Below, in pieces: positions 26,464-42,192 of a stretch of 64,000 nt of DNA. A program made the position numbers and the translations under genes. Under the pieces are notes generated by a model. The model saw only the letters and a list, made by a program, of their open reading frames with translations, did no database searches and was not told where the DNA came from. The stretch is from an uncultured Eubacteriales bacterium (GTDB lineage Bacteria > Bacillota > Clostridia > Oscillospirales > Oscillospiraceae): NCBI GenBank assembly GCA_900547315.1, contig URGI01000001.1, forward strand, positions 12,639-76,638, written 5' to 3'. The first letter of the stretch is position 1. Every line of letters begins with the position of its first letter.

Positions 26464-26478
26464 AGTTAAACGATTATC
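26464..26478 (+). promoter_or_regulatory. Candidate LacI-family operator, copy 1 (AGTTAAACGATTATC), about 40 nt upstream of the regulator gene
   Basis: One of three copies of a near-palindromic 14-16-mer centred on CG. Exact string read from the sequence. Confidence 0.4.
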
Positions 26479-27619: not shown

Positions 27620-27635
27620 GGTTAAACGATTAACC
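27620..27635 (+). promoter_or_regulatory. Candidate LacI-family operator, copy 2 (GGTTAAACGATTAACC). A perfect palindrome TAGTTAACTA lies at 27642-27651.
   Basis: Near-palindrome with the same core as copies 1 and 3. Confidence 0.4.
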
Positions 27636-27755: not shown

Positions 27756-27771
27756 AGTTAAACGATTAACT
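27756..27771 (+). promoter_or_regulatory. Candidate LacI-family operator, copy 3 (AGTTAAACGATTAACT), about 100 nt upstream of the carbamate kinase start
   Basis: 7 of 8 palindromic pairs around the central CG. Identical core to copy 2. Confidence 0.4.
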
Positions 27772-28812: not shown

Positions 28813-28846
28813 GCGTCATTCATTATATTAATTAGGAGTTATAAAA

Positions 28847-30059: not shown

Positions 30060-31448
30060 ATGAGCAAGTATTTAGCAGAGCAGATTTCTGAAGTAGTTGT
30101 CAACACCCATTTTGAGGATCTGCCCCAGTATGCAGTTGACAAAGCAAAGATGCTGACCCTCGACGTTCTGGCCTCTATGGTCGGTACCCGCAAGGTCATC
30201 TCCAGCGAAATCGCCCGCGATGTAGCGGCAGAGCTCGGCGGCCCGGAAGAGGCTTCCATCGTCGGCTACGGCAAGAAGGTTGCAGCACCCAACGCTGCAT
30301 TCGCAAATGCTATCCAGTGCTATGGTCTTGACTTCGTTGATGACCATAATGAATCCAACGCTCACCCCTCTCCCGTTACCTACCCCGTCAGCTTCGCACT
30401 CGCCGAGCAGCTCAAGCGCTCCGGTAAGGAATTCATCGAAGCCTGCGTTCTCGGTAACGAGATCGTCTGCCGTATGGGCAGCGCCTACCTCGGCGACATG
30501 TACACCCAGGGCTTCCATCCCACCAGCACCTGCGGCACCATGGGCGGTGTTGTCTCCGCTGCAAAGCTGATGAAGCTCGACGAGCAGAAGGTCTCCTACG
30601 CTCAGGGCATCGCCGGCTCCGCCGTTGCGGGTCTGATGGCATGGAACACCCAGGGCTCCTTCACCAAGCGTTACCAGGCCGGCCGTCCCTCCATGGACGT
30701 CATCGTTGCCGCACGCATGGCCGAGAAGGGCTTCAACGGACCTACCGACATCTTCGAGAGCCAGGACGGTCTGCTCCACGCATACTCCTACCAAGATCGC
30801 TACGACACCAACTGGATCACCAAGGATCTGGGCAAAGAGTGGATATTCGCCACCTCCAGCATCAAGGTTTACCCCTGCTGCCGTTACTCCGGCGGTCACC
30901 TCGACGCCTGCCTTGAGATCGTCCACAAGTATCATCCCGATCCCGCCAAGATCGCAAAGATCCACGTTCGCTCCTCCCTCCAGACCATGCACCTGCTGGC
31001 CGAGCCGCGCAAGTGGCATCCGGAAAACATCGTTGACCTGCAGTTCTCCATGCCTTACCAGGCAGCTGTCGCGTTCCTCAACGGCAAGTTCACTCCGGAC
31101 GAGCTGAATGTCGAGTACATCAAGAATCCGCTCATCCAGAAGATGATCGCCAACACCACCGTCGTCTGCGACGATGAGTTCGAGCGCCGTTATCCTGAGC
31201 ACTACTCCAGCGCTGTTACCATCACCATGGAAGACGGCACCGAGTACACCGCAGTTGTCGACGATCCTAAGGGCGACTGGAGAAATCCCGTTACCTACGA
31301 AGATGTCGAGAACAAGTTCCGTTACCTCGCCAATACCGTTTACGCTGATCCCGAGCGCACCGAGAAGATCATTGCTTTCGTCAAGGATCTTGAGAAGCAG
31401 CCCGACATGAGCGTTCTCATGGAGCTTGTAAACGACGAGGCCAAATAA
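30060..31448 (+). CDS. MmgE/PrpD family protein (2-methylcitrate dehydratase / cis-aconitate decarboxylase superfamily)
   Basis: 462-aa protein with the MmgE/PrpD architecture (N-terminal helical domain, conserved C-terminal region). Confidence 0.85.
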   Translation: MSKYLAEQISEVVVNTHFEDLPQYAVDKAKMLTLDVLASMVGTRKVISSEIARDVAAELGGPEEASIVGYGKKVAAPNAAFANAIQCYGLDFVDDHNESNAHPSPVTYPVSFALAEQLKRSGKEFIEACVLGNEIVCRMGSAYLGDMYTQGFHPTSTCGTMGGVVSAAKLMKLDEQKVSYAQGIAGSAVAGLMAWNTQGSFTKRYQAGRPSMDVIVAARMAEKGFNGPTDIFESQDGLLHAYSYQDRYDTNWITKDLGKEWIFATSSIKVYPCCRYSGGHLDACLEIVHKYHPDPAKIAKIHVRSSLQTMHLLAEPRKWHPENIVDLQFSMPYQAAVAFLNGKFTPDELNVEYIKNPLIQKMIANTTVVCDDEFERRYPEHYSSAVTITMEDGTEYTAVVDDPKGDWRNPVTYEDVENKFRYLANTVYADPERTEKIIAFVKDLEKQPDMSVLMELVNDEAK

Positions 31449-31479
31449 TTAAGCTTCGCAAGTGAGAGGAGATAAACAT

Positions 31480-32055
31480 ATGGGCGAAAGAAATGCCGAC
31501 TCTCGCGGGAAGAAGATAGTTTTCGTATCCAACTGCCTGCTCAACGCCAACAACAAGGTTCAGGAGTTTGCACGCTACCCCGGAATGTTTTTCGAGATAC
31601 TCACCACGCTCAACAGGTATGGCATCGGCGTCGAGCAGATGCCATGCCCGGAGACGCTGTACGCCGGAAACCAGCGCTGGTGGCACTCCCGCAATCTTTA
31701 CGATAATGCGGGCTTCAGAAGATTCTGCCGCGAGCTTGCCGAGCGGACGGTCGACTACATCGAGAACTACGGCATAGTAGGCTATCAGGTGGTCGGTATT
31801 CTGGTCTGCGACGGGTCCCCGACCTGCGGCTACTCCATCTCCAGCTATTACGAAAACGGCGGCGGTCATCCTGCCGAGCCGGTACGCAGCTTTAAAGAGC
31901 GCCCCGGCATATATACGGAGGAATTGCTCAAGGCGGTCGAGGCGCGGGGCGTGAAGCTCCCGCCGATATACGGCCTGCCGGTGGACGACAGAGATCGCAC
32001 CAACGAGCAGATAATCGCCGATTTTGACAGTTTCATTAATTCCAATCTCACCTAA
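31480..32055 (+). CDS. DUF523 family protein (TudS-like: three conserved Cys, [4Fe-4S]-dependent 2-thiouracil desulfidase family)
   Basis: IVFVSNCLL..., MPCPET and GSPTCGY match the three Cys-containing motifs of DUF523/TudS. Start at the ATG at 31480 with a GAGAGGAG RBS. Confidence 0.6.
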   Translation: MGERNADSRGKKIVFVSNCLLNANNKVQEFARYPGMFFEILTTLNRYGIGVEQMPCPETLYAGNQRWWHSRNLYDNAGFRRFCRELAERTVDYIENYGIVGYQVVGILVCDGSPTCGYSISSYYENGGGHPAEPVRSFKERPGIYTEELLKAVEARGVKLPPIYGLPVDDRDRTNEQIIADFDSFINSNLT

Positions 32056-32170: not shown

Positions 32171-33433
32171 ATGGGAATGACATTTGCACAGAAAGCTCTG
32201 GCAAGAGCCGCAGGCAAAGATTATGTTGATATAGGCGAAATCGTCATGGCGAACGTCGACGTGGCCATGATGGACGATATACTCGGCCCCAGAATCGAGA
32301 TCGCAGCCGGTTTGAAAGAACTGGGCGTTGACGTCTGGGACAAGTCCAAGGTCGTTGTCATAAGCGACCACTACACTCCTCCCTGCGAGATAAAGCAGGC
32401 TGAGGCCGTCCGCTTCACGCGCGACTGGTCCGAGGAGCACGAGGTGTCCTACTACGAGTACGCAGGACCGTGTCATCAGGTTCTGGCCGAGCGCTGCTAT
32501 GACCAGCCCGGCACCCTCGTCGTCGGCACCGACTCCCACACCTGCATGGCAGGCGCTTTCGGCGCGTTCGGCACCGGCATCGGCTCTACCGAGATGCTCG
32601 GCGTCGTCGCCACCGGCCAGATCTGGCTCAAGGTTCCCGAAAGCTTCCGCATTGAATGGAAAAACAAGCTCCCCGCGGGCGTATTTGCCAAGGACATGGT
32701 TCTCTATGACTGCGGCAAGATCGGCCACTCCGGAGCCACATATAAAGCACTTGAGTACTGCGGCGATATGATAAGCGCCCTGTCAATGGACGAGCGCATG
32801 GCCATCTCCAACATGGCCGTTGAGATGGGCGCGAAGGCCGGCTACATCCCGGCCGACGAAAAGACCCTCGAATACATCAAGGCGCACGGCGAGCTCAAGA
32901 ACTACGCGATGCTCTATCCCGACGCGGACGCCGTCTACGAGCGCAACTACGTGAACGACGCGGCGGCGCTTGTACCGCAGGTCGCCTGCCCGCACCACGT
33001 CGACAATGTCCACCCCGTCACCGAGGTGGAGGGCACCAAGCTCACCCAGGTCTACATCGGCTCCTGCACCGGCGGCAGAATTTCCGACCTGCGCACCGCA
33101 GCAAAGGTGCTCAAGGACAGGAAAGCGGCTCCCGGAATGCGCTTCCTCGTCTCCCCGGCCTCCAGAGAGGTCTACAAGATGGCGCTTAACGAAGGCATAC
33201 TCGATATCCTCACCGACGCCGGCGCGGTCATCGTCGCCCCGTCCTGCGGACTCTGCCTCGGCGCGCACACCGGCATACTCGCAGCCGGCGAGAGCTGCAT
33301 CTCCACCAGCAACCGCAACTTTATCGGACGTATGGGCAGCAAGAATGCGAACGTCTACCTCGGCTCTGCGGCAACCGTCGCAGCTTCCGCGATAGAGGGA
33401 CGTATAGCCGATCCAAGAAAGTATTTTGAATAA
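32171..33433 (+). CDS. Aconitase-family hydro-lyase large subunit, short LeuC-type (3-isopropylmalate / citramalate / dimethylmaleate dehydratase-like)
   Basis: 420-aa short-form LeuC with Fe-S ligand motifs GSCTGGR and APSCGLCLG. It is sited in a catabolic operon, not with leuAB. Confidence 0.8.
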   Translation: MGMTFAQKALARAAGKDYVDIGEIVMANVDVAMMDDILGPRIEIAAGLKELGVDVWDKSKVVVISDHYTPPCEIKQAEAVRFTRDWSEEHEVSYYEYAGPCHQVLAERCYDQPGTLVVGTDSHTCMAGAFGAFGTGIGSTEMLGVVATGQIWLKVPESFRIEWKNKLPAGVFAKDMVLYDCGKIGHSGATYKALEYCGDMISALSMDERMAISNMAVEMGAKAGYIPADEKTLEYIKAHGELKNYAMLYPDADAVYERNYVNDAAALVPQVACPHHVDNVHPVTEVEGTKLTQVYIGSCTGGRISDLRTAAKVLKDRKAAPGMRFLVSPASREVYKMALNEGILDILTDAGAVIVAPSCGLCLGAHTGILAAGESCISTSNRNFIGRMGSKNANVYLGSAATVAASAIEGRIADPRKYFE

Positions 33434-33451
33434 TCGGGAGGGAGAATAAAA

Positions 33452-33946
33452 ATGGATTCTGTAATCACCGGAAAGGTATGGAAATTCGGAGATGACATCA
33501 ATACCGACATAATATCTCCCGCCGAATACATGGACGCCAGCTACGGGGTTATCGGTAAGCACGCGATGGAGCGCGCGTTCCCCGGCTTCGCGGATGCTAT
33601 TGCACGGGGTGATATAATCGTTGCAGGTAAAAACTTCGGCTCCGGCTCCAGCCGCGAGACAGCGCAGATCGCTCTCATTTACGCGGGCGTCGGCGCGGTC
33701 ATTGCGAAGGACTTCGCCCGTATCTTCTTCAGAAACTGCATTAACGTCGGCCTGCCCGTTGTCAACTTTGCGGACACCGACAAGCTCAATCAGGGCGATG
33801 AGATACGCGTCAACTTCCTCTCCGGCGTGATCGAGGATCTCACCACCGGCGAGACCTATCACGGCAGCCGTCTGCCTGAAAACGTGCTTGCAATCGTGCA
33901 GGACGGCGGACTGAAGGAGCACCTGAAGAAAAGCCTCAAAAAATAA
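33452..33946 (+). CDS. Aconitase-family hydro-lyase small subunit, short LeuD-type
   Basis: 164-aa protein with N-terminal KFGDDINTDIISP and a GSSRE region typical of the LeuD swivel domain. Confidence 0.8.
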   Translation: MDSVITGKVWKFGDDINTDIISPAEYMDASYGVIGKHAMERAFPGFADAIARGDIIVAGKNFGSGSSRETAQIALIYAGVGAVIAKDFARIFFRNCINVGLPVVNFADTDKLNQGDEIRVNFLSGVIEDLTTGETYHGSRLPENVLAIVQDGGLKEHLKKSLKK

Positions 33947-33982
33947 GTAAAAACTTATATATATTTTCACGGAGGTAAAACA

Positions 33983-35173
33983 ATGGCAACACTGAAGACA
34001 ACCTTTGCCGGAGTTTCCATGCCGAACCCGTTCATGCTCGCATCCGCGCCTCCCACGACCAACTGTGAGATGGTAGCCCGCAGCTTTGACGCCGGCTGGG
34101 GCGGCGCCGTGCTCAAGACCATGGCATATGATCTGAGAATGGCACGCAATGTAAACCCGCGCATAGCGGCCTATAAGGTTGGCAAGTCCATCCACGGCTT
34201 TACTAACTTCGAGCTCGGCAGCCCGAAGCCCATCTCCAAGTGGCTTGAGGACGCGCGCTGGCTGAAGGAACGCTTCCCCGAACACGCCGTGTTCGTCAGC
34301 CTTCTGCACACGGAAGGTCTCGTCGAGGAACAGTGGCGCGAAGTGACCAGAATGTTCAACGATGCCGGTATCGACGGCTTCGAGCTGAACTTCTCATGCT
34401 CCCACGGTATGGCGGAAGCGGGCGGCGGCGCTCAGGTCGGCGGCAACGAGGAGGCTATAAAGATGGTCACCAACTGGGTCAGATCCGAAACCAATCTCCC
34501 GGTTATGCCAAAGCTTCCCGCAATGGTTCCCAACATCGGCAGCAAGGCTCGCGCGGCTGAGGAAGCCGGCGCAGACGCCATAGCAACGATAAACACCCTC
34601 AATTCCATTCCCGGAATCGACATCTATAATTTCGTCCCGTATCCCACGGTCGACGGCAAGAGCGCATTTTCCGGCATGAGCGGCCGCGCGATAAAGCCCA
34701 TCGCTCTGCGCACCGTCGCTCAGGTCGCCAAGGCCGTCAACATCCCGGTCTCCGGTATCGGCGGCATATACACATGGCAGGATGCGGTAGAGTTCATCCT
34801 CGCGGGCGCGTCCTCTCTGCAGGTCTGTTCCGCGGTCATGGAGAACGGCTACAAGTGCGTCGAGGCGATGAACAAGGGTCTCCTTAAGTATATGGAGGAG
34901 ATGGGCTTTGAGACGATAAGCGACTTCGTCGGCAAGGCGCTGCCCAACATTACCGCGCACAACAATCTTTCTAGAACCTATAAGCTCCACGCCGAGTGCG
35001 ACGAGACCAAGTGCATCGGCTGCTCCCGCTGCGTGGCGGTCTGCAGCGACAGCGCTTACAGCGCAATCAGCATGGACGGCAAGCACGCTTCCGTTGACGC
35101 GGCGAAGTGCGACGGCTGCGGCCTGTGCACTCAGGTCTGCCCGGCCGGAGCGCTCAGCATGAAGGTCAGATAA
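33983..35173 (+). CDS. PreA-like dihydropyrimidine/dihydroorotate dehydrogenase-family flavoprotein with a C-terminal 2x[4Fe-4S] ferredoxin domain
   Basis: 396-aa protein: TIM-barrel DHOD/DHPD-like core plus C-terminal CIGCSRCVAVC...CDGCGLCTQVCP. No PreT-like partner is encoded nearby. Confidence 0.8.
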   Translation: MATLKTTFAGVSMPNPFMLASAPPTTNCEMVARSFDAGWGGAVLKTMAYDLRMARNVNPRIAAYKVGKSIHGFTNFELGSPKPISKWLEDARWLKERFPEHAVFVSLLHTEGLVEEQWREVTRMFNDAGIDGFELNFSCSHGMAEAGGGAQVGGNEEAIKMVTNWVRSETNLPVMPKLPAMVPNIGSKARAAEEAGADAIATINTLNSIPGIDIYNFVPYPTVDGKSAFSGMSGRAIKPIALRTVAQVAKAVNIPVSGIGGIYTWQDAVEFILAGASSLQVCSAVMENGYKCVEAMNKGLLKYMEEMGFETISDFVGKALPNITAHNNLSRTYKLHAECDETKCIGCSRCVAVCSDSAYSAISMDGKHASVDAAKCDGCGLCTQVCPAGALSMKVR

Positions 35174-35194
35174 ACAGCAGGGGAGGCTGAGACA

Positions 35195-36580
35195 GTGAAC
35201 GATATCAACATTATAAACGGTACGATTGTTCGCCCTGAGGGCTGCGAGAAGGCCGATATCGGCATTCGCGGCGGAAAGATAGTCTCAGTGAACAAGCCCG
35301 GCAGCCTGACCGAAGCGGCTGAAAAAACGATAGATGCAAGCGGCCTGTATGTGTTTCCGGGGATGATAGATACCCATGTGCACATCCGCGGCGGTATCCT
35401 CTCCCACCGTGAGAGCTTTGCCTCCGGCACTCAGGCTGCCGCATCCGGCGGCATCACTACGATCATGGAGATGCCGATAGCGAACCCGCCCGCCTCCACG
35501 CCGGAAGCCTTCGATGCGCGGCGCAAGGAAATAGGCGAGCAGGCATATGTCGACTTCTGCATGTACGGCGGCGCCGGAAGCGATAACCTCGACCAGATAG
35601 AGCTGCTGACGAGCCACGGCGCGGCGGCATATAAGACCTTCCTGATGCCTCCCGTGCCCGGCCGCGAGAAGGAATTTTACGGCCTTTGCAGCGAGACTAC
35701 AGAACAGCTCACGGAGGTCATGGAGCGCGTGGCCGCGGTCGGCGGCGTGCTCTGCTGCCACAGCGAGCTGAACGAATACGTTGCTCCCTATGCCGCAAAG
35801 CTTATGGCCGAAGGCCGCAACGGCGTAAAGGCATGGGGCGAGTCGAGACCGATCGAGGCTGAGACGGAAGCCGTAAAGCGCGTCATTGCCGCCGCCGAAA
35901 AGACCGGCTGCAAGGCAGTTATCTGCCATGTCAGCGCACCGGAGACGGTCGAGCTTATCCAGCAGGCGAAGAAGCGCGGCGTGGATATACACGGCGAGAC
36001 CTGCCCGCAGTACATCCTGTATAACTGCGAGAATGCGGAAGCCGCCGGTGTGTTTGCCCGCATGAAGCCGCCGCTCCGCACTCCGGAGACCATGGAGAAG
36101 CTCATGCAGTGCTACGCCGACGGGCTCCTTGAGATAACCGGCAGCGACCATGCGCCGTACACCTACGAGGAGAAGACCCGCAGCGGCGAAGATATATGGC
36201 ATTGCTTCGACGGACTTCCCGGCCTTGAGCTGAGCCTGCGCCTTCTGCTGAACGCGGCATCCGACGGCAGACTCACCTATGAGGAGATCGCCTGCAACAC
36301 GGCCGAGAACCCCGCTGCGCTGTTTGGTATCGACGGCGCGAAGGGCAGGATCGAAGCCGGACGCGACGCCGACCTTGTGCTCGTAGAGCGACTGGACAAG
36401 CCGGAGACGCTGCATAAAGAGCAGCTCGTCACGAAGAGCCGCGAGAGCGCGGTGCTCTACGACGGCACGCAGATGACCCACCGCATCAAAGAAACCCTCG
36501 TGAGAGGAATCACCGTCTTCAAAGACGGCACCATTACCGTAAGCCATGGCTTCGGCCAGCTTATTATACCAAAATCCTAA
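35195..36580 (+). CDS. Cyclic amidohydrolase of the dihydropyrimidinase/hydantoinase/allantoinase family
   Basis: 461-aa protein with the metal-ligand motif DTHVHIR, the carbamylated-Lys region AAYKTFLM and the C-terminal Asp region GSDHAP. GTG start after a GGGGAGG RBS. Confidence 0.8.
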   Translation: MNDINIINGTIVRPEGCEKADIGIRGGKIVSVNKPGSLTEAAEKTIDASGLYVFPGMIDTHVHIRGGILSHRESFASGTQAAASGGITTIMEMPIANPPASTPEAFDARRKEIGEQAYVDFCMYGGAGSDNLDQIELLTSHGAAAYKTFLMPPVPGREKEFYGLCSETTEQLTEVMERVAAVGGVLCCHSELNEYVAPYAAKLMAEGRNGVKAWGESRPIEAETEAVKRVIAAAEKTGCKAVICHVSAPETVELIQQAKKRGVDIHGETCPQYILYNCENAEAAGVFARMKPPLRTPETMEKLMQCYADGLLEITGSDHAPYTYEEKTRSGEDIWHCFDGLPGLELSLRLLLNAASDGRLTYEEIACNTAENPAALFGIDGAKGRIEAGRDADLVLVERLDKPETLHKEQLVTKSRESAVLYDGTQMTHRIKETLVRGITVFKDGTITVSHGFGQLIIPKS

Positions 36581-36603
36581 ATCAACAAAAAAGGAGAACT
36601 ACT

Positions 36604-37590
36604 ATGAGAACAGACATGCGCGGAAGAGATTTTGTTACCCTTCAGGACTTCACCGGTGAAGAGATCCAGACCATTCTGGACGTAGCTTTCCAGCTGAAGC
36701 GCGAGAACGCTATCGGTCAGGCTCACGAGCTGCTCAAGAACAAGACCCTCGGTATGCTCTTTGCACAGCCCTCCACCCGTACCCGCGTCTCCTTTGAGAC
36801 TGGTATGACTCAGCTTGGCGGCCACGCTCAGTATTACAGCGAGGACTCCATGCAGCGCAAGAATAAGGAAACTTGGGCCGACACCGGTCTGGTTCTTTCC
36901 CGTTACCTCAACGCTCTGATGGTTCGTCTGTACGACCTTGAGGAGTACGGCATGGCTCGTGACATCATGAACGAGATCCGCAAGAACACCACTATCCCCG
37001 TCATCAACGGCCTCGACGACAAAGAGCATCCCTGCCAGTGCATGGGCGACCTGATGGTCATTCAGGAGAAGCTCGGCGCAGGCTGGAAGAAGAAAAAGAT
37101 CGTTATGAGCTGGGCATACTCCGACCGCGTCAAGTCCCCCGGCGTTCCTCAGGCAATGCTGACCGCATGCAGCCTGCTCGGCGCAGACATCACCCTCGCT
37201 TACCCGAAGGGATACGAACTTGACGACCAGTACATGGAGTTCGCTCAGAACGCCGCAAAGTCCTCCGGCTCCGTCATCAGCGTTACCAACGACATCTACG
37301 AAGCCTGCACCGGCGCAGACGTCATCTACGCAAAGAGCTGGGGCAGCACCCACGGTATGCCCAAGGACGAGGATAAGGAGTACCGCAAGCAGTTCGCCAA
37401 GGATTGGTGCATCTCCGACAAGCACTTCGAGCTTGCAAATCCTGTTTCCTACTACATGCATCCGCTGCCCGCAGCACGCCACGAGGAAGTCACCGACGAA
37501 GTCATCGACGGACCGCACTCCATCGTTTACGATCAGGCCGAGAACCGTCTGCACGCTCAGAAGGCAGTCCTCGCTCTGCTCATGAAGTAA
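36604..37590 (+). CDS. Carbamoyltransferase of the ATC/OTC family with divergent second-substrate motifs (substrate unknown)
   Basis: Carbamoyl-phosphate motifs STRTR and HPCQ are present. The positions equivalent to OTC SMG and HCLP read SWG and HPLP. No arcA or arcD is in the window. Confidence 0.8.
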   Translation: MRTDMRGRDFVTLQDFTGEEIQTILDVAFQLKRENAIGQAHELLKNKTLGMLFAQPSTRTRVSFETGMTQLGGHAQYYSEDSMQRKNKETWADTGLVLSRYLNALMVRLYDLEEYGMARDIMNEIRKNTTIPVINGLDDKEHPCQCMGDLMVIQEKLGAGWKKKKIVMSWAYSDRVKSPGVPQAMLTACSLLGADITLAYPKGYELDDQYMEFAQNAAKSSGSVISVTNDIYEACTGADVIYAKSWGSTHGMPKDEDKEYRKQFAKDWCISDKHFELANPVSYYMHPLPAARHEEVTDEVIDGPHSIVYDQAENRLHAQKAVLALLMK

Positions 37591-37657
37591 GAATTTAATA
37601 AGAAGTAACATAAACAAAAGCAAGATCAGACGATTCCCACTCTGCGAATGAAATAAT

Positions 37658-37715
37658 CGGGGCAGGAGGAGAACCTGCCCCGTGTTGGAAAGCGATCCGC
37701 GGTCGCTTTTCTCCG
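37658..37715 (+). terminator. Tandem hairpins ending operon 1 (CGGGGCAGG/CCTGCCCCG, then AGCGATC/GGTCGCT plus TTTTCTCC)
   Basis: 9-bp GC stem at 37658-37682. A second 7-bp stem at 37691-37707 is followed by a U-rich tract. Confidence 0.5.
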
Positions 37716-37788
37716 CAGGCCGTATGCTCAGTCGCGAGGGTATGCGAGGCGGAAAACATAAAGCAACATTTAGAGGAGGAAAAAATTT

Positions 37789-37938
37789 ATGTTCGGATTA
37801 CCGTTCCCAACCTATCTTGGCTGGCTTCTCGGCCCCGGCGTCATGATCTTCACGTTCTTGACAAGCTTTATCCTTTATAAGAACTATCTTAAAAAGGAAG
37901 CTGCCGAGGAAGCAGAAAAGAACAGCAAAGATAAGTAA
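37789..37938 (+). CDS. Small single-TM peptide (49 aa) immediately upstream of the SSS symporter (possible symporter accessory subunit)
   Basis: GAGGAGGA RBS 8 nt before the ATG at 37789. Translation is MFGLPFPTYLGWLLGPGVMIFTFLTSFILYKNYLKKEAAEEAEKNSKDK. It is absent from the ORF track because it is under 60 aa. Confidence 0.4.
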   Translation: MFGLPFPTYLGWLLGPGVMIFTFLTSFILYKNYLKKEAAEEAEKNSKDK

Positions 37939-37992
37939 ATAGCATATACCAGCAGAAACCTATCATGGCATAAAGTGACAGGAGGAAACCAA

Positions 37993-39483
37993 ATGGATAG
38001 TAAAATCAAAATAATGGGTTATGCGGTCCATGGCTTGTACTTCGTTGGTATGCTGGCTATCGGTTATTTTTGCAACAAGAAGTATGCAAACAATGTTGAT
38101 GGCTTCTTTGCCGGCGGCAAGAACCTTGGCCCATGGGTCTTCGCACTTACCTACGGTTCAACTTATCTCAGCTCTTCGACGTTTGTCGGCAACACCGCCA
38201 CGGCTTACTCCGGCGGTCTTGCCTACCTTTTCATGCCCCTTGCGCAGATGCTCTTACTCCCCCTCGGACTTATCTTCTTCTCCCACATCCTGCGTAAGAT
38301 GAGTCAGTCATTGGATGTTGTCACTATCCCTGCATATCTTGAAAAACGTTTCAAGAGTCCCGCTGCCGGAATGATAACCTCCCTCATTATCGTCATTTTC
38401 TTCATTCCCTATCTCGTTGGCATAGTCAAGGCATCGGCGCTTTCGCTGGGTGCTCTTCTTGGCGTTGAGTACAAAATCGGTGTTCTCGTTATCGCGTTCA
38501 TCAGTTTTGTTTATCTCATGTTCGGCGGCTATATGGCTCGCTGCTACACTGACGTGGTTCAGGGTGTGATGATGGTCGTCGGTATGATGGCGGTTGTTAT
38601 TGCCGGCTTCTTCATTGTCGGCGGACCGAGCGCCATTACCGAAGGCGTGAAGGCAGCCGATCCCGCGCTCCTTGAGACCCCCGGTCCTAAGGGCTGGAGC
38701 GCACTGTTCCTCTATTCCACTGTTTTTGCAATAGCCCCGTGGGGACTTCCCACTCTCGTTCAGACCAACTTCACCATAGGCAACAGAAAGCATGTTTACA
38801 CCGCCGCTATCGTTCTGTCCATTTGGATATCCTGTGTCCTCTTCGGCTCCATGATAATCGGCAACATGGGCCGCGCCTTCTACGGCAACGCTCTTGTTGA
38901 TAATCCTGACTCCCTGTTCCCGACGCTGGTTATTGACTGGTTCCCGAACCTCTTCGGTGCTATAATTATCGTTGCGGTCATCTGCGCGGCAATGTCTACA
39001 ATTGACGGCACGCTGATGAACTCCGGCGCCGCTGTCGGCCTTGATATATACAAGCGTTTTATCAAGAAGGACGCGAGCGACAAGAAGGTCATTACGATCT
39101 CCAACATAGCAATGGGCGTTATCACGCTTGTCGTTATAATCTGGGCGTTTGATCCTCCCGCAATGGTGCTCACCCTCACAAGCTACGCGTTCTCTCTGGT
39201 CGCTGCCGGACTTATCGTTCCCACCTATGCGGGTCTTTACTGCAAGAAGCTCACCAGCGCAGGCTGCGTGGTTGGTATTCTTGCCGGTCTTGGCTTCTGC
39301 CTGCTGTGGTACATTACCGGTACGCCGCTTGGGATCCCTCCGTTCGTTGTCGGTATGGTCGCCTCCGCGATCGCTCTCTTCGGCGTCAGCAAGTTCACCA
39401 AGCCCCTGCCTCAGGAGTTTATTGACGATCTGTTCGCAAAGCTCAAGAACAACGCATACGTTACGGAAACTGTGGAAAAGTAA
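37993..39483 (+). CDS. Sodium:solute symporter (SSS) family transporter
   Basis: About 496-aa protein with 13-14 predicted TM helices and the SSS-family pattern. ATG at 37993 after an AGGAGGA RBS. Confidence 0.8.
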   Translation: MDSKIKIMGYAVHGLYFVGMLAIGYFCNKKYANNVDGFFAGGKNLGPWVFALTYGSTYLSSSTFVGNTATAYSGGLAYLFMPLAQMLLLPLGLIFFSHILRKMSQSLDVVTIPAYLEKRFKSPAAGMITSLIIVIFFIPYLVGIVKASALSLGALLGVEYKIGVLVIAFISFVYLMFGGYMARCYTDVVQGVMMVVGMMAVVIAGFFIVGGPSAITEGVKAADPALLETPGPKGWSALFLYSTVFAIAPWGLPTLVQTNFTIGNRKHVYTAAIVLSIWISCVLFGSMIIGNMGRAFYGNALVDNPDSLFPTLVIDWFPNLFGAIIIVAVICAAMSTIDGTLMNSGAAVGLDIYKRFIKKDASDKKVITISNIAMGVITLVVIIWAFDPPAMVLTLTSYAFSLVAAGLIVPTYAGLYCKKLTSAGCVVGILAGLGFCLLWYITGTPLGIPPFVVGMVASAIALFGVSKFTKPLPQEFIDDLFAKLKNNAYVTETVEK

Positions 39484-39607: not shown

Positions 39608-41257
39608 ATGAAAAAATACAATCTTGACTTAAGCGGCTACAATGTGCCGCATGATATGCTGCCTACCAAACCGGAAGAGCGCAACTGGAACATTTACAGC
39701 TTCTTCGCTCTCTGGATCGGCATGGATATCGGTATCCCCACTTACATGCTCGCTTCTGGACTTATTGAGGGCGGCATGAACCTCAAGTGGGCCATGATTA
39801 CCATTTTGCTTGCGAATATAATCATTGCATTCCCCATCATGCTCAACGGCCATGCCGGTGCGAAGTATGGTATTCCTTCCACCGTTTATTGGCGCTCCGC
39901 GTTCGGCTTCAACGGCGCAAGCGTCGCTGCGGTTCTCCGCGGCATCGTGGCTGCCGGCTGGTGCGGCATCCAGTTCTGGATCGGCGGCAACGCGCTGAAC
40001 GTTGCGCTGTCCATCCTCATCCCCGCGTGGGGCAACTGGGCCTTGGGCAAATGGGTTTGCTTTGTAGTGTTCCTTCTGCTGAACCTCTATATACTTATCA
40101 ACGGACTTGGTGCGATAAAGAAGATGGAACATCTCTGCGCACCCATGCTCATCATCTGGCTGATCGTCATGCTCATCTGGGCGCGTACCACCGCGGGCAG
40201 CTGGGGACCGATGGTCAACGCCAAGATGACCTTCGCAACCACCGCGGAGTTCGTCGCTTTCTTCGTCGTCAGCCTCAACTCCAACATCAGCTACTGGTGC
40301 TCCATGCCCCTTACGGTCACTGACTTCACCAAGGCGGCAAAGGATCAGCGCAGTCAGGAAGTTGGCCAGCTGCTCGGCATACCCACCGGTATGTTCCTGC
40401 TCGCTCTCGTCGGCGCTCTGGTCAGCTCCTGCACCATCGTTATCTTCGGACATGTCATCACCGACCCCGTTGCTCTCACCAGCATGATCGGCCATCCTGC
40501 GCTGATCGTCGGCATGATGCTCTTCCTCATCATCGCAACTCTTACCACGAACGTCGCCGCAAACGCCCTTACCCCGGCGGTTGCAATCGTTCACCTCACC
40601 AACGGCAAGCTGAACTTCAAGTGGGCTGCTGTCGTTCTCTGCGCCATCGGCGTCGCAATTCGTCCTTGGGTGCTCATCAACGACATGGGTCTTTACATGA
40701 ACTTCTTCCTCAACGGCGGCGGCGCTCTGCTCGGCCCCGTTGTCGGGGTGACGATCTGCCACTACTTCTTCGTCTGCCGCACCGAGCTTGACGTTAGAAG
40801 CCTTTATGTTCCAGAAGGCGAGTCGATGTTCCTGAACATCAAGAAGTACAACAAGCCCACCTACATAATCATCTGGGCGATGTCGGCTATTATGCTTCTT
40901 ATCGCGCAGCTGGCTCCCGCATCCTGGCAGACCGCAACCTGCACTTTGGGCTGCTCCATGCGCTTCTCCATGAACGCCATGGCCATAATCTGCATTGCGC
41001 TGGGCTATCTGGTCTTCCGCAAGAGAGAAGGCGGCATCAACTCCCTGAGCTACCTCACCCTTGCGATAAGCTTTGTCATCATCTTCCTCGGCCTGTGGGT
41101 TCCCGTAGCGCACTGGCTGTATGACGCGTCCTTCATCGTCGGCACTCTGCTTGGCCTGGGCATCTACGTCCTGCTCATGCGCGTGTGCGACAAGGACTTC
41201 ATGGTCAAGAAAGCCGCCGAGCACAAGGCAGCCAAGGCTGAAGAGGCAAACGCCTGA
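39608..41257 (+). CDS. NCS1 family permease (nucleobase-cation symporter-1: cytosine/uracil/allantoin/hydantoin-type)
   Basis: 549-aa 12-TM protein with the NCS1 N-terminal pattern (ERNWNIYSFFALWIGMDIGIPTYMLASGLI). GGGAGAT RBS. Confidence 0.8.
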   Translation: MKKYNLDLSGYNVPHDMLPTKPEERNWNIYSFFALWIGMDIGIPTYMLASGLIEGGMNLKWAMITILLANIIIAFPIMLNGHAGAKYGIPSTVYWRSAFGFNGASVAAVLRGIVAAGWCGIQFWIGGNALNVALSILIPAWGNWALGKWVCFVVFLLLNLYILINGLGAIKKMEHLCAPMLIIWLIVMLIWARTTAGSWGPMVNAKMTFATTAEFVAFFVVSLNSNISYWCSMPLTVTDFTKAAKDQRSQEVGQLLGIPTGMFLLALVGALVSSCTIVIFGHVITDPVALTSMIGHPALIVGMMLFLIIATLTTNVAANALTPAVAIVHLTNGKLNFKWAAVVLCAIGVAIRPWVLINDMGLYMNFFLNGGGALLGPVVGVTICHYFFVCRTELDVRSLYVPEGESMFLNIKKYNKPTYIIIWAMSAIMLLIAQLAPASWQTATCTLGCSMRFSMNAMAIICIALGYLVFRKREGGINSLSYLTLAISFVIIFLGLWVPVAHWLYDASFIVGTLLGLGIYVLLMRVCDKDFMVKKAAEHKAAKAEEANA

Positions 41258-41280
41258 TCGACCTCAAACAGGAGCAAAAA

Positions 41281-42105
41281 ATGAGAAACGTAACTATCAG
41301 CGTCATCCAGCTTGAAAACAAGCTCTTTGATAAGAATGCGAACCTTCTCAAGGCCGACGGACTCATCCGTCAGGCCGCGGCAAAGGGCGCAAAAATGATA
41401 TGCCTGCCCGAACTTTTTGTCACGGGCTACAACCTCAACGCCTTCGGCGACAGGATATATGAGCTTGGCGAAGGGCTGACCGGCCCCACCATCACTCATA
41501 TGCGCGCTCTGGCAAAGGAGCTTGGCGTGTACATAATAGCGCCCATAGCCATGCAGATGCGCACGACCCGCCCGCTGGAGAACAACGCCGTCGTTATCGA
41601 CGACGAGGGCGAGGTCATCGGCACCTACAGCAAAAACCATCTCTTCGGCGACGAGCCGAAATACTTCACCGCCAACGGTGAATACCCGGTGTTTGACACC
41701 AAATACGGCAAGATCGGCATAATGATCTGCTGCGATAACAACTTCCCCGAACCCGCGCGCATCCTTGCGCTCGGCGGCGCGGAGCTGATATTCATGCCCG
41801 CGGCATGGCGCGTACAGGAAGCGGATCTGTGGAAGCTCCTCATCTCCTCGCACGCCTGCGAGAACAATGTGTTCATCGCCGCAGCCAATGTCTTCAGCCG
41901 TATGGACGATCTGTTCCTTTTCGGACACAGCAAGGTCGTCGATCCCAGAGGCAGAGTTCTGCGCGAATCCGAGACGGAGGGAGACGATGTGCTCGTTGAG
42001 ACCATCGATCTCGATTCCGTGTACGAGCATCGCGCCTGCATGCCCAGCCTCAAGGATCGCCACCCCGAAACCTACGATGCGTTCATCGAACCGGTGAACG
42101 TGTAA
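41281..42105 (+). CDS. Carbon-nitrogen hydrolase family amidase (nitrilase superfamily branch that includes N-carbamoyl-amino-acid amidohydrolases, beta-ureidopropionase and omega-amidase)
   Basis: Catalytic triad context: E in LPELF, K in YSKNHLF, C in MICCDNNFPE. Confidence 0.8.
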   Translation: MRNVTISVIQLENKLFDKNANLLKADGLIRQAAAKGAKMICLPELFVTGYNLNAFGDRIYELGEGLTGPTITHMRALAKELGVYIIAPIAMQMRTTRPLENNAVVIDDEGEVIGTYSKNHLFGDEPKYFTANGEYPVFDTKYGKIGIMICCDNNFPEPARILALGGAELIFMPAAWRVQEADLWKLLISSHACENNVFIAAANVFSRMDDLFLFGHSKVVDPRGRVLRESETEGDDVLVETIDLDSVYEHRACMPSLKDRHPETYDAFIEPVNV

Positions 42106-42192
42106 GCACAGCGAAAGCGGGCGGTGCGCAAATCATTTGCCGCGCCGCCTGCAAATTAAGCCTTTGGCTTTATTATAATGGAGGAAAATAAA

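Follow-up and report, generated by a model that had tools for sequence, protein, structure and literature searches.

Three Genes for Proposed Ring Reduction, Ring Opening, and Phosphorolytic Decarbamoylation in a Conserved Candidate Ureide Catabolic Cluster

Introduction

Three consecutive genes (33983–37590) in a 64-kb stretch of gut Firmicute DNA, the window analyzed here, encode a PreA-like reductase, a cyclic amidohydrolase, and a carbamoyltransferase (TC). On what ring do these enzymes act, and what becomes of the carbamoyl group? An earlier note had proposed that a uracil-like ring is converted to an N-carbamoyl compound and then to an amine and carbamoyl phosphate, which would yield ATP through a carbamate kinase (CK) of the same operon. 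Our analysis confirms that the genes are real and of the types named, but supports the interpretation only in part: the module is indeed conserved, yet the three-gene account left out the five genes that separate CK from the reductase, as well as those 3′ of TC. We propose, and judge the chances to be about even, that the three proteins respectively reduce the ring, open it, and remove the carbamoyl group within a LacI-controlled catabolic cluster (27874–44314) acting on a carboxyl-substituted pyrimidine-2,4-dione (uracil-type ureide). Only tentatively do we suggest that the particular substrate may be 5-carboxymethyluracil, including its 2-thio and amide forms.

Results

The three genes lie 22–24 bp apart, and from CK, whose ATG is preceded by a ribosome-binding site, through TC the genes form a tightly spaced string with intergenic gaps of 14–116 bp. 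Putative LacI operator-like sites (GTTAAACGATTAAC) occur three times in 64 kb, against 0.1 expected by chance, and are found only 5′ of lacI and 5′ of CK (Table 1). Common strand, close spacing, and the operator pair support the assignment of the three genes to one operon with CK. The hairpin that follows TC is possibly a partial terminator or a processing site; because of this hairpin and the 385-bp gap in which it lies, co-transcription of the string with the SSF-to-lyase genes is only putative.

Table 1. Features of the cluster and its upstream region
Feature	Position	Strand	Basis or remark
Putative LacI-type operator-like site, GTTAAACGATTATC	26465..26478	+	Upstream of regulator gene; one of three sites in 64 kb
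LacI-family transcriptional regulator	26515..27570	+	LacI HTH and Peripla_BP domains
Putative operator-like site, GTTAAACGATTAAC	27621..27634	+	First of pair upstream of CK
Putative operator-like site, GTTAAACGATTAAC	27757..27770	+	Second of pair; ~100 bp ahead of CK start
Carbamate kinase (CK); carbamoyl phosphate + ADP to ATP	27874..28812	+	TIGR00746, 438 bits (cutoff 358)
PrpF-family isomerase, homologue of E. barkeri 3-methylitaconate delta-isomerase (Mii)	28847..30004	+	Matches to 3g7k and PrpF
MmgE/PrpD-family protein	30060..31448	+	Structure matches; role inferred
TudS-related (CD3072-family) [4Fe-4S] desulfidase-like protein	31462..32055	+	NF045597, 133.5 bits (cutoff 130); likely start 31480
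Aconitase/LeuC-like hydro-lyase, large subunit	32171..33433	+	NF001614, 546 bits
LeuD/DmdB-like small subunit	33452..33946	+	Specificity loop YMDA
PreA/PydA-like FMN and 2×[4Fe-4S] reductase; proposed ring C5=C6 reduction	33983..35173	+	Domains, profile scores, residues
Cyclic amidohydrolase; proposed ring opening	35195..36580	+	Profile and structure matches; DHOase-type HxHxR and GSDHAP motifs
TC, YAKSW/HPLP clade; proposed phosphorolysis of N-carbamoyl intermediate	36604..37590	+	Domains, motifs, tree, model
Hairpin, 9-bp, GC-rich	37658..37682	.	68 bp past TC stop
Small hydrophobic ORF, 49 codons, with ribosome-binding site	37789..37938	+	Sequence reading; immediately before SSF gene
Sodium:solute symporter (SSF)	37975..39483	+	Profile match; likely ATG 37994
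NCS1 nucleobase/allantoin/hydantoin-type permease	39608..41257	+	Allantoin permease model 249 bits; TIGR00800 241 bits
Nitrilase-superfamily C-N hydrolase; amidase or hydrolytic decarbamoylase	41281..42105	+	Profile match
Family III CoA-transferase	42178..43383	+	Profile match; kept after SSF in L005
HMG-CoA-lyase-family (DRE-TIM) lyase	43404..44314	+	NF004283, 278 bits (cutoff 246); kept in L005 and L014

The reductase combines a DHO_dh domain with a 2×[4Fe-4S] domain and scores 448 bits against the NCBIfam PreA model (cutoff 335). All seven residues that we take to contact uracil in pig DPD (N609, E611, N668, S670, C671, N736, and T737) are conserved. As had been remarked, no PreT-like gene lies in the 64-kb window, but this is true only of the present lineage: such a gene adjoins PreA in the closest relative, L005, and in L173, L168, L085, and L001, and its absence here is a lineage-specific loss.

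The amidohydrolase keeps all metal ligands and scores below every NCBIfam cutoff, those of the dihydropyrimidinase models included. Calling it dihydropyrimidinase-like captured the enzyme class but not its closest kin, which are allantoinase, L-hydantoinase (1gkr), and DHOase, with dihydropyrimidinase behind these; an alpha-amino-acid product would thus fit at least as well as a beta one. Its orthologues share a DHOase-type Arg after HxH, together with GSDHAP (GSDHAPxxxxK). This Arg is probably carboxylate-binding and would suit a carboxylated substrate. No cyclic amidohydrolase was found within 10 kb on either side (less at contig ends) in L001, L085, L086, and L168, where PreA, PreT, and TC are present.

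TC has OTCace_N and OTCace domains, and its predicted structure (pLDDT 92) adopts the OTC/AOTC/PTC fold. The motifs STRTR and HPCQ noted earlier are both present, as is HPLP, and the carbamoyl-phosphate binding motifs are invariant in the clade. OTCases have been defined by exactly the ornithine-binding residues D231, N167, and K53 (PMC4581275). In our alignment D231 is replaced by K244, a Lys invariant in the clade; N167 is lost where an insertion brings in R175 and K177, both invariant; and at the position of K53 the enzyme has Q (Q, N, or K across the clade). The SMG motif is lost as well. The D-x-x-x-S-M-G of OTC aligns with K244-S-W-G-S248-T249, and SWG (245–247), which had been read as a shifted SMG, is aligned with the VWA of OTC. 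The conclusion drawn from that reading nevertheless stands: since the published diagnostic residues are changed or lost, the pocket appears not to be one for ornithine. It is cationic, rich in invariant Arg and Lys, and points to a carboxylated substrate. A neighbor-joining tree places the TC clade apart from the SMG-type OTCs, with the PreA-linked members clustered together. HPLP, rightly singled out before, does mark the PreA-linked subclade: every one of the 52 homologues with roughly 63% identity or more carries it, whereas sister clades carry HCLP.

A PreA-like gene adjoins TC in all eight HPLP-subclade loci recovered, which span at least three phyla, and CK adjoins TC in four of the eight; in L168 and L086 CK was not found within 10 kb. 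TC, reductase, amidohydrolase, and CK are thereby supported as a conserved module, and the presence of a PreA-like gene beside every subclade TC favors a route in which the ring is opened reductively and the product is then decarbamoylated by phosphorolysis. That this step stands in place of a hydrolytic beta-ureidopropionase, as had been claimed, is doubtful because the cluster also encodes a C-N hydrolase, which could simply be a hydrolytic decarbamoylase and which in L173 has a homologue flanked immediately by TC and CK.

The carbon-handling genes travel with TC too. A PrpD gene is beside or near TC in seven of nine related loci, and Mii-, PrpD-, TudS-, LeuCD-, CoA-transferase, and HMG-CoA-lyase-like genes are co-conserved with it in other phyla. 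The gene set of L005 (Ca. Allofournierella merdavium) is identical, with PreT in addition. The order is Amh-TC-CK-PrpF-PrpD (Amh, amidohydrolase) in L004 (Thermoanaerobacteraceae) and PrpD-TC-AcnL-AcnS-PrpF-SucCD-HMGL in L014 (Anaerolineae); L173 and L174 carry AcnLS, a PrpB/Dml-like lyase, PreA, PreT, Amh, TC, CN-hydrolase, CK, PrpF, PrpD, and a Bmp-type ABC transporter. PreA, TC, and PrpD are linked also in L168, L086, and L087, and SSF comes after TC in L005, L004, and L087. This shuffling of gene order between phyla argues for one pathway. Its terminal step would fall to a CoA-transferase acting with an HMG-CoA-lyase-like enzyme or, alternatively, to an ICL-family lyase. Tct transporters in related loci are taken as pointing to a carboxylated substrate.

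The Mii homologue matches 3g7k with 420 bits and 55% identity, versus 250 bits for PrpF, and conserves the Lys and Cys that are presumably catalytic in Mii. Among solved structures the PrpD-family protein comes nearest to IDS epimerase (110 bits), followed by IRG1/CAD (97 bits); its proposed role, elimination of NH3 from an amino-dicarboxylate or decarboxylation of it, is conjectural, and we know of no enzyme that catalyzes such an elimination. The TudS-like protein has three Cys motifs and a counterpart in L005, and the LeuD-like subunit is nearest to that of the MJ1277 IPM/citramalate isomerase. The cluster contains no nucleoside hydrolase or esterase.

Discussion

The pathway that we envisage is assembled, in each of its steps, from homology and synteny. 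NCS1 and SSF transporters would import the substrate; a thio form would become the oxo form through the TudS-like desulfidase, and a side-chain amide the acid through the C-N hydrolase. The PreA-like enzyme would then reduce C5=C6, drawing electrons from ferredoxin here but, in relatives, from PreT, and the amidohydrolase would open the ring to an N-carbamoyl amino-dicarboxylate. TC would move the carbamoyl group onto phosphate, from which CK would form ATP, CO2, and NH3. Removal of the amine by the PrpD-family protein would leave an itaconate-type C5 diacid, to be isomerized by the Mii homologue to a citraconate-type acid, hydrated by the LeuCD-like enzyme to a citramalate-type acid, and cleaved by CoA-transferase and lyase to pyruvate and acetyl-CoA.

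The nucleobase character of the substrate is suggested by the NCS1 permease, the Bmp-type binding protein, the TudS-like desulfidase, and the conserved DPD uracil-binding residues. Our best guess for a single substrate using every gene of the cluster is 5-carboxymethyluracil, together with its 2-thio and amide forms, the bases that occur in the tRNA wobble nucleosides cm5U, ncm5U, and mcm5s2U. Its breakdown would pass through 2-(aminomethyl)succinate and then itaconate; a literature search found nothing on 5-carboxymethyluracil catabolism. Several features count against this scheme: the kinship of the amidohydrolase, the loci in which no amidohydrolase or no CK was found, the possible hydrolytic role of the C-N hydrolase, the lack of a nucleoside hydrolase or esterase in the cluster, and the occurrence next to TC, in some related loci, of alpha-type aminotransferases or of an Asp-oxidase-like flavoprotein.

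Such genes (AspAT-family or NadB-like, in L086 and L168) favor the main rival, which we consider doubtful: that the ring is orotate, a 5-substituted orotate, or a DHO-like hydantoin. An orotate reductase, a catabolic dihydroorotase, and a TC acting as a reverse "ATCase" on an OTC scaffold would yield carbamoyl phosphate and aspartate or 3-methylaspartate, with a C5 diacid (mesaconate/citraconate) passing through Mii, LeuCD, and lyase. The DHOase-type motifs of the amidohydrolase would suit this chemistry, as would HPLP and the Lys/Arg of TC close to where ATCase has R229 and R167; housekeeping PyrC could serve loci without a dedicated amidohydrolase, and catabolic ATCase was listed as unproven in a 2015 review. 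However, the reductase matches pig DPD with 241 bits, far above the 94 bits of its match to DHOD, aspartate from plain orotate needs no PrpD, Mii, LeuCD, or lyase, and the close Mii homologue points to an exo-methylene (itaconate-type) intermediate that no aspartate derivative gives directly. Nor, to our knowledge, are 5-methylorotate and 5-carboxymethylorotate natural metabolites, or is a thio-orotate known as a substrate of the desulfidase.

Degradation of plain uracil or thymine by the reductive Pyd route, with a beta-alanine or beta-aminoisobutyrate carbamoyltransferase replacing beta-ureidopropionase and the other genes unrelated, is unlikely. The PreA score, the intact uracil contacts, and the conserved module are all compatible with it; the existence of a beta-alanine transcarbamylase has been predicted, though not demonstrated, and in L001 the module occurs with ACAD/ETF/ECH and acyl-CoA synthetase genes that could handle beta-alanyl-CoA. 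Yet beta-alanine and beta-aminoisobutyrate cannot feed the Mii, PrpD, LeuCD, and lyase genes, which are interleaved with the module in an order that varies by phylum, and neither a beta-alanine aminotransferase nor malonate-semialdehyde enzymes were found in the 64-kb window. The carboxylate-binding signature of an amidohydrolase that falls below the dihydropyrimidinase models, and the Arg- and Lys-rich TC pocket, also speak against it.

It is quite unlikely that two unrelated modules are adjacent by chance, one for a ureide (reductase, amidohydrolase, TC, and CK) and one for branched diacids (Mii, PrpD, LeuCD, CoA-transferase, and lyase) that handles itaconate/citraconate or nicotinate-like carbon. 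Each would be chemically self-sufficient, L001 and L085 carry the ureide genes without Mii or LeuCD, and hairpin and gap part TC from the downstream genes. But a single operator pair stands before a tight string in which CK precedes Mii and PrpD. In L014, moreover, PrpD and AcnL flank TC, and the sets are mixed also in L004 and in L173, where AcnS and PreA enclose the lyase and where PrpF and PrpD follow CK. Chance hardly explains such repeated interleaving in Bacillota and Chloroflexota.

A variant reductive purine (uric acid/xanthine) pathway with TC in the YgeW role is very unlikely. In its favor, the neighbors of sister-clade TCs (64% identity) include CK and a second TC along with PLP enzymes, a YgeY-family hydrolase, and a true dihydropyrimidinase; L014 and L085 have XDH-like genes near TC; and the published pathway likewise unites a stand-alone DHO_dh-type reductase, hydantoinase, TC, and CK. 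The TC of the window, however, falls in the separate HPLP subclade, XDH, SsnA, YgeY, and diaminopropionate ammonia-lyase were not found in the window, and the C3 unit left by purine degradation needs no Mii, LeuCD, or citramalyl-type lyase. That TC is an ordinary ornithine carbamoyltransferase and a mere neighbor is scarcely credible: it barely passes TIGR00658 (281.6, cutoff 280.85), its homologues bear that name in databases, and its nearest solved structure is P. furiosus OTC (44% identity), but the ornithine determinants are gone, no arc or arg genes lie near it (arginine deiminase and the Arg/Orn antiporter, as had been stated, are absent from the 64-kb window), and its synteny with PreA-like genes is strict.

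Phosphorolytic decarbamoylation has a published precedent in YgeW with YqeA, as does a stand-alone reductase in UacX/PydAc (PMC12507026, PMC7332683); for a reductase lacking a PreT partner, the precedent is the ferredoxin-dependent PydAc (PMC7332683). If the proposed ureide pathway is correct, this conserved and so far uncharacterized cluster probably lets a gut Firmicute use an unusual carbamoyltransferase to turn the carbamoyl group that is set free into ATP, and burn the leftover carbon with itaconate/citramalate-type enzymes. Its terminal step, whether by CoA-transferase and HMG-CoA-lyase-like enzyme or by ICL-family lyase, would mirror the last steps of nicotinate fermentation in E. barkeri.

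A Carbamoyltransferase Outside the Recognized Families

The OTC-fold carbamoyltransferase of the cluster shares 44% identity with the ornithine carbamoyltransferase (OTC) of P. furiosus, and its model (pLDDT 92) shows the OTC/AOTC/PTC-type fold in Foldseek comparisons. The carbamoyl-phosphate motifs STRTR (residues 57–61) and HPCQ (142–145) are invariant, or nearly so, among 111 full-length homologues. OTCs are defined by the contacts of D231/SMG, Asn167, and Lys53 with ornithine (PMC4581275). Where OTCs have the DxxxSMG loop (D231, S235, M236), the enzyme has K244-S-W-G-S248-T249; across the 111 homologues the D231 column holds an invariant lysine (K244), the methionine is replaced by Phe, Leu, Cys, or Thr, and the glycine is gone. 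The GDGNNV segment of OTC becomes SWAYSDRVKSPGVPQ, with P179 in the Asn167 column, and the family pattern that replaces GDGNN is W170-A-Y-S-x-R175-x-K177-S-x-G-V-P-Q. The column of OTC Lys53 (FxKxSxRT) is occupied by Gln at position 55, and by Asn, Gln, or Lys across the family.

The earlier note had proposed a non-ornithine enzyme, and the alignment of 111 homologues bears this out, since D231, the Met and Gly of SMG, GDGNN, and Lys53 are all replaced. One strand of its argument fails: SWG was read as a shifted SMG, but it aligns with VWA of OTC, and the equation of the two is an error of register. Its remark on HPLP proves sound. The HCLP of OTC is absent, and HPLP, together with P179, is fixed in the enzyme and in 52 of 52 homologues of at least about 63% identity, marking a real subclade; the sister clades have HCLP and Ala.

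The OTC profiles give scores close to their cutoffs (TIGR00658, 281.6 versus 280.85; NF001986, 298.9 versus 306), and it is because the OTC equivalog is passed by less than 1 bit that homologues are named "ornithine carbamoyltransferase" in databases. The RxQxER motif of the ATCase 240s loop is missing, ATCase models give 133–137 bits versus 237–263, and the likeness to ATCase is confined to HPLP and nearby cationic residues. Scores fall far short of the cutoffs for YgeW (115–124 versus 453–500), PTC (272 versus 500), and AOTC (242 versus 288). The Dap TCase motif is (T/S)RWQTTG plus HDLP (PMC4581275), and here the loop is KSWGS with HPLP. In a neighbor-joining tree the "YAKSW" family stands apart from the SMG-type OTCs. 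Judged by the defining features of each family, the enzyme is outside the OTC, ATC, PTC, AOTC, YgeW, and Dap-TCase groups.

When the enzyme is aligned with PyrB of E. coli, K244 adjoins R229 of ATCase, and R175/K177 lie a few residues from R167. We infer that the amine substrate is anionic, and probably a dicarboxylate.

The Reductase and Its Electron Supply

The PreA-like reductase consists of an FMN (DHO_dh) domain and a C-terminal 2x[4Fe-4S] ferredoxin domain with two CxxCxxCxxxC motifs. It belongs with PreA/PydA by its score on NF006183 (448 bits versus a cutoff of 335) and gives 241 bits against pig DPD versus 94 against DHOD B. Residues N609, E611, N668, S670, C671, N736, and T737 (pig DPD numbering) are all kept; we take these to be the pyrimidine contacts and catalytic cysteine of pig DPD. 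Ile613 of DPD is replaced by Gly in eight of the eight reductases linked to transferases of the HPLP group.

No PreT/PydA1 partner (FAD/NAD(P)H) is found within the 64-kb window. The earlier note had taken this to suggest a different electron donor or a stand-alone enzyme; the absence holds for the window, but the nearest relative (L005, from Ca. Allofournierella merdavium) has PreT, and the stand-alone form has a precedent in PydAc, which has been characterized as receiving electrons from ferredoxin (PMC7332683, Wang et al. 2020). The analogous UacX is also proposed to be ferredoxin-fed (PMC12507026). The PreT-like gene of L005 (Fer4_20 plus Pyr_redox_2) lies between those for PreA and the amidohydrolase, where the window has a 21-bp spacer, and PreT-like partners are likewise kept in L173, L168, L085, and L001. 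Either L005 has gained this gene or the lineage of the window has cleanly lost it. A gene for a large single-chain pyruvate:ferredoxin oxidoreductase (PFOR) in the window is consistent with ferredoxin-based metabolism, and its product is a plausible source of reduced ferredoxin for a reductase without PreT.

A second protein with DHO_dh and ferredoxin domains adjoins XDH-like molybdenum hydroxylase genes in L014 (Anaerolineae) and L085. It lacks the catalytic Cys and Asn motifs of DPD/DHOD and may be of the uncharacterized "dehydrogenase X" type that Barba and colleagues reportedly described in 2013.

An Amidohydrolase with Dihydroorotase-Type Motifs

The cyclic amidohydrolase retains the full metal-ligand set (HxH, carbamylated Lys, His, His, Asp) and scores below every curated cutoff: allantoinase, 348 versus 358; dihydroorotase (DHOase), 287 versus 452; TIGR02033, 261 versus 393. 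It is therefore not a dihydropyrimidinase or D-hydantoinase by score; an enzyme from the sister-clade locus L169 reaches 447 on TIGR02033. Among solved structures the nearest are L-hydantoinase 1gkr and the allantoinases, ahead of the D-hydantoinases and dihydropyrimidinases. HxH[IV]R and GSDHAP[YF]xxxxK occur in each of the five orthologues linked to the cluster and are missing from the L-hydantoinase, one allantoinase, and one true dihydropyrimidinase. These HxHxR and GSDHAP motifs are presumably the PROSITE dihydroorotase signatures, and the arginine presumably that which binds the distal carboxylate of the substrate in DHOase structures.

Organization of the Gene String

The ORF listing and profile searches of the 64-kb window place the three genes in an uninterrupted string on one strand, from 26515 to 44314, with intergenic gaps of 14–116 bp from carbamate kinase through the carbamoyltransferase. 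The window has three copies of a palindrome-like element, GTTAAACGATTAAC, one of them with a single mismatch, where 0.1 would be expected by chance. No genes other than lacI and that for carbamate kinase are preceded by it, and the LacI-family regulator probably has its operator in these copies. Close by is an inverted repeat, GCAACGTTTACC...GGTAAACGTTGC.

Features of the window and of related loci (coordinates refer to the window unless a locus is named)
Feature	Position	Strand	Remarks
ORFs of 427, 330, 256, and 381 aa	in 3619–6728 and 10550–11695	+	no Pfam match at E<=1e-6
Pyruvate:ferredoxin oxidoreductase	15764–19468	-	large, single-chain
M20D-family amidohydrolase	25116–26288	-	CpsA / N-acyl-amino-acid hydrolase type, 303 bits
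GTTAAACGATTAAC, first copy	26465–26478		5' of lacI
LacI-family regulator	26515–27570	+	
Inverted repeat	~27570–27610		
GTTAAACGATTAAC, other copies	27621–27634, 27757–27770		5' of carbamate kinase
Carbamate kinase	27874–28812	+	equivalog HMM TIGR00746, 438 bits versus cutoff 358
PrpF-family isomerase	28847–30004	+	
MmgE/PrpD-family protein	30060–31448	+	both Pfam domains
TudS-related CD3072-family desulfidase-like protein	31462–32055	+	NF045597
LeuC-like hydro-lyase subunit	32171–33433	+	
LeuD-like hydro-lyase subunit	33452–33946	+	
Three genes of the finding, together	33983–37590	+	
PreA-like reductase	33983–35173	+	
Cyclic amidohydrolase	35195–36580	+	
OTC-fold carbamoyltransferase	36604–37590	+	
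GC-rich hairpin, perfect 9 bp	37658–37682		68 bp past carbamoyltransferase stop; no clear T-tract on + strand
49-codon hydrophobic membrane ORF (MFGLPFPTYLGWLLGPGVMIFTFLTSFILYKNYLKK...)	37789–37938	+	strong RBS; directly 5' of SSF symporter
SSF symporter	37975–39483	+	
NCS1 permease	39608–41257	+	
Nitrilase-superfamily C-N hydrolase	41281–42105	+	
Family III CoA-transferase	42178–43383	+	
HMG-CoA-lyase-family protein	43404–44314	+	
PreT-like gene, L005	6650–7879		
Second DHO_dh/ferredoxin-domain protein, L014	7364–8518		
Second DHO_dh/ferredoxin-domain protein, L085	534–1700		
Sister-clade carbamoyltransferases, L169, L171, L172, L002, L006–L011	~10001–10990 in each		

The 385-bp gap 3' of the carbamoyltransferase holds a small ORF and a hairpin that may act in partial termination or in RNA processing. 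The product of the ORF is similar to the small membrane proteins that accompany some SSF transporters. An Rfam scan of the whole window gave no match, and no riboswitch was found in the 300-bp leader or in this gap.

The flanks carry the housekeeping genes of a spore-forming Firmicute (SpoIID, DpaA/B, PFOR, CTP synthase, aminoacyl-tRNA synthetases, V-type ATPase). No PreT, XDH, or class III aminotransferase occurs in the flanks within the 64-kb window, nor does an arginine deiminase or antiporter, as the earlier note had observed. The M20D-family amidohydrolase gene diverges from that of the LacI regulator; N-carbamoyl-L-amino-acid hydrolases occur among M20 enzymes. Four long ORFs farther upstream match no Pfam family at E<=1e-6.

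Conservation in Other Genomes

The closest genomic match to the window is L005, whose carbamoyltransferase is 88% identical and whose gene order is the same apart from the PreT-like gene. A PreA-like gene stands beside the carbamoyltransferase in every HPLP-subclade locus retrieved (L005, L004, L173/L174, L085, L168, L001, and L086). Carbamate kinase is adjacent in the window, L004 (Thermoanaerobacteraceae), L173, and L001, and is missing from the recovered flanks of L168 and L086. A PrpD-family gene accompanies the carbamoyltransferase in seven of nine loci, counting the more distant L087 and L014, and Mii-like (3-methylitaconate delta-isomerase-like) and LeuCD-like genes do so in the window, L005, L004, L173, and L014. 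With AcnL and AcnS denoting the LeuC- and LeuD-like subunits, the order is PrpD-TC-AcnL-AcnS-PrpF-SucCD-lyase in L014, AcnLS-Amh-TC-CK-PrpF-PrpD in L004, and AcnLS-lyase-PreA-PreT-Amh-TC-CN hydrolase-CK-PrpF-PrpD in L173, where TC, CK, and Amh stand for carbamoyltransferase, carbamate kinase, and amidohydrolase. Because the gene orders interleave differently in Bacillota and Chloroflexota, the arrangement argues for a single pathway served by all these genes.

The sister-clade "YAKSW/HCLP" carbamoyltransferases, 50–64% identical, come from Thermotogae, Bipolaricaulota, Caldisericota, and other phyla, and have as neighbors carbamate kinase and a second carbamoyltransferase, which is AOTC-like. 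Nearby are YgeY/M20 hydrolases, threonine-synthase-like and CysK-like PLP enzymes, and a true dihydropyrimidinase or a peptide ABC transporter. It is possible that these loci specify a doubly phosphorolytic diureido pathway. They contain neither PreA nor PrpD, and their enzymes differ from that of the window at P179/A and P287/C. Their context was set aside as a guide to the substrate of the window enzyme. A metagenome scan with the carbamoyltransferase alignment returned ordinary OTCs only, at most 45% identical, which matched the generic STRTR/MTQLGGHA patterns.

A Probable Branched-Diacid Module

The PrpF-family protein is 55% identical to Mii of E. barkeri over 380 columns, with 420 bits versus 250 against PrpF. 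It keeps the TSK and NCGN motifs, in which we take the catalytic Lys and Cys of Mii to sit, and is predicted to have Mii function. The PrpD-family protein scores only 21–47 bits on PrpD models. It retains D93, H103, H159, K207, K272, and Y318, presumably the active-site residues of CAD, but these do not discriminate function because IDS epimerase has them too.

The LeuD-like subunit is closest to that of the M. jannaschii isopropylmalate/citramalate isomerase. Its specificity loop (residues ~25–30) reads YMDA in the window and L005 and YMEL in L004, with Ser or Thr at this position in L014 and L168; isopropylmalate isomerase has YLVY and homoaconitase YLRT. The acidic residue suggests, though not decisively, that the substrate of the hydro-lyase bears a polar or cationic group, which does not fit simple citraconate. 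The TudS-like protein falls barely within the CD3072 family (133.5 versus 130 on NF045597) and has the three cluster-binding cysteines in its SNC, MPCPE, and CDGSPTC motifs. The terminal lyase belongs to the HMG-CoA-lyase family in the window, L005, and L014, where its partner is a CoA-transferase or a SucCD-like ligase, and to the PrpB/ICL family in L173.

Nicotinate fermentation uses Mii, DmdAB, and Dml, and Chloroflexus has an (R)-citramalate CoA-transferase and an (R)-citramalyl-CoA lyase. By analogy, we infer that the module would convert a methylenesuccinate-type acid to an alkylmaleate, then to a 2-alkylmalate, and finally to pyruvate and acetate or acetyl-CoA. Given this chemistry, the amine released by the carbamoyltransferase should be a dicarboxylate with a branched C5 (or C6) skeleton; β-alanine and β-aminoisobutyrate, from uracil and thymine, would not qualify.

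The earlier note had phosphorolysis acting in place of a hydrolytic β-ureidopropionase. The carbamoyltransferase and carbamate kinase are indeed conserved; outright replacement is less secure, since the cluster includes a C-N hydrolase. A homologue of the latter adjoins the carbamoyltransferase in L173, so hydrolytic and phosphorolytic C-N cleavage may coexist. The hydrolase could be either a side-chain amidase or an alternative decarbamoylase.

A Proposed Pathway

The most likely scheme, in which each step is conjectural, begins with 5-carboxymethyluracil; it would use every conserved gene and account for four accessory genes. A uracil bearing a 5-carboxymethyl group would be reduced by the reductase and opened by the amidohydrolase, and phosphorolysis by the carbamoyltransferase would then give 2-(aminomethyl)succinate and carbamoyl phosphate. 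β-Elimination of ammonia to form itaconate is tentatively assigned to the PrpD-family protein because its relatives abstract the α-proton of (amino)polycarboxylates. The Mii homologue would convert itaconate to citraconate, the LeuCD-like enzyme would convert this to (R)-citramalate, and the CoA-transferase and lyase would yield pyruvate and acetyl-CoA. The TudS-like desulfidase might act on 2-thio forms, the C-N hydrolase might convert a carbamoylmethyl amide to the acid, and the NCS1 permease might import the base, a role that a Bmp-type binding protein would fill in L173.

As a natural base, 5-carboxymethyluracil is documented from tRNA (cm5U, ncm5U, and mcm5s2U). A further reading, to which we give a rather low probability, is that the cluster serves solely to degrade, with conservation of ATP, the modified bases of tRNA wobble uridines, namely 5-carboxymethyluracil and its 2-thio and carbamoylmethyl forms. 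If true, it would provide the first carbamoyltransferase acting on a β-amino dicarboxylate, N-carbamoyl-2-(aminomethyl)succinate; a new activity, that of a PrpD-family ammonia-lyase forming itaconate; and an anaerobic route, so far undescribed, by which itaconate yields pyruvate and acetyl-CoA by way of citraconate and (R)-citramalate.

The main rival substrate is an orotate-like ring yielding a substituted aspartate. The DHOase-type motifs of the amidohydrolase are in its favor, as are AspAT- or NadB-like neighbors in L086 and L168 and the four loci (L001, L085, L086, and L168) that have PreA, PreT, and the carbamoyltransferase but no amidohydrolase in the flanks recovered, where a housekeeping PyrC could serve. 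Such a substrate would, however, leave the itaconate-type isomerase unaccounted for, and no natural 5-substituted orotate is known to us. Hydantoin-5-propionate/ergothioneine, biotin, pteridines, barbiturate, and plain orotate were rejected, since they give no branched C5 diacid or the reduction step is missing.

ATP formation by a carbamoyltransferase and carbamate kinase is established for arginine, agmatine, allantoin/oxalurate, and, since 2025, uric acid; from pyrimidine-type rings it has been predicted but, to our knowledge, never shown. The HPLP clade, conserved and routinely mis-annotated as "ornithine carbamoyltransferase", is a concrete, testable candidate for such a route, and its gene set would link cleavage of the ring with the breakdown of a branched diacid; the substrate of the cluster is offered as a hypothesis. 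A 2015 review of the family regarded catabolic aspartate and β-alanine transcarbamylases as still to be proven. Searches of the accessible literature, which covered 5-carboxymethyluracil catabolism, β-alanine/ureidopropionate transcarbamylase, PrpF with carbamate kinase, and methylitaconate with carbamoyltransferase, found no description of this combination of genes. If confirmed, the model would set right an annotation error that is widespread and extend a well-studied enzyme family to a new substrate; it might also show the fate of modified nucleobases or orotate-like compounds in gut and digester anaerobes.

Relation to Known Systems

The reductive uric-acid pathway (XdhD; YgfK or UacX; SsnA; HyuA; YgeW; YqeA; YgeY; YgeX) offers a close parallel (Li et al. 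2025, PMC12507026). In both, a DHO_dh-type Fe-S flavoenzyme, possibly stand-alone as in UacX, would reductively dearomatize the ring, a cyclic amidohydrolase would open it, and an OTC-superfamily carbamoyltransferase would split the ureido group by phosphorolysis for carbamate kinase to form ATP. The transferase of the window is not YgeW (124 bits versus 453–500), however, and XDH, SsnA, YgeY, and YgeX are lacking; the leftover carbon is diaminopropionate in the uric-acid pathway and would here be a branched C5 diacid on which Mii, LeuCD, and the lyase act.

The Pyd pathway (PMC7332683) shares a PreA/PydA-type reductase with conserved uracil contacts and, for the next step, a cyclic amidohydrolase, and PydAc has the same stand-alone architecture of FMN and ferredoxin domains without an FAD/NAD subunit. 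It ends in a hydrolytic ureidopropionase, PydC, and forms no ATP, whereas here the carbamoyltransferase and carbamate kinase are conserved. By model score the amidohydrolase of the window is not a dihydropyrimidinase and has DHOase-type carboxylate-binding motifs, and the downstream genes do not suit β-alanine.

The lower nicotinate fermentation pathway of E. barkeri comprises Mii, DmdAB, and Dml. The 55% identical Mii homologue, the LeuCD/DmdAB-type hydratase, and, in L173, the ICL/PrpB-family lyase recall this pathway, as would the course from a methylenesuccinate through alkylmaleate and alkylmalate to pyruvate and an acid. In contrast, the cluster lacks nicotinate dehydrogenase, enamidase, and the B12 mutase, its nitrogen ring would be a ureide giving carbamoyl phosphate, and the last step in the window would be CoA-dependent, as in Chloroflexus Sct/Ccl for (R)-citramalate.

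In the ADI and agmatine deiminase pathways, too, an OTC-branch carbamoyltransferase splits a ureido compound by phosphorolysis, and carbamate kinase forms ATP at the substrate level. The present cluster has no deiminase or antiporter, and its carbamoyltransferase has neither the DxxxSMG of OTC nor the 230s-loop motif and C-terminal extension of PTC (272 bits versus a cutoff of 500).

Orotate fermentation by C. oroticum proceeds through orotate reductase, dihydroorotase, and ureidosuccinase. There, as proposed here, reduction of a carboxylated uracil precedes ring opening by a DHOase-type enzyme, and the product is an N-carbamoyl amino-dicarboxylate. The ureidosuccinase step is hydrolytic and the reductase is a PyrD/PyrK-type DHOD, whereas the window cluster combines a DPD-type reductase with a carbamoyltransferase and carbamate kinase and adds the branched-diacid module.
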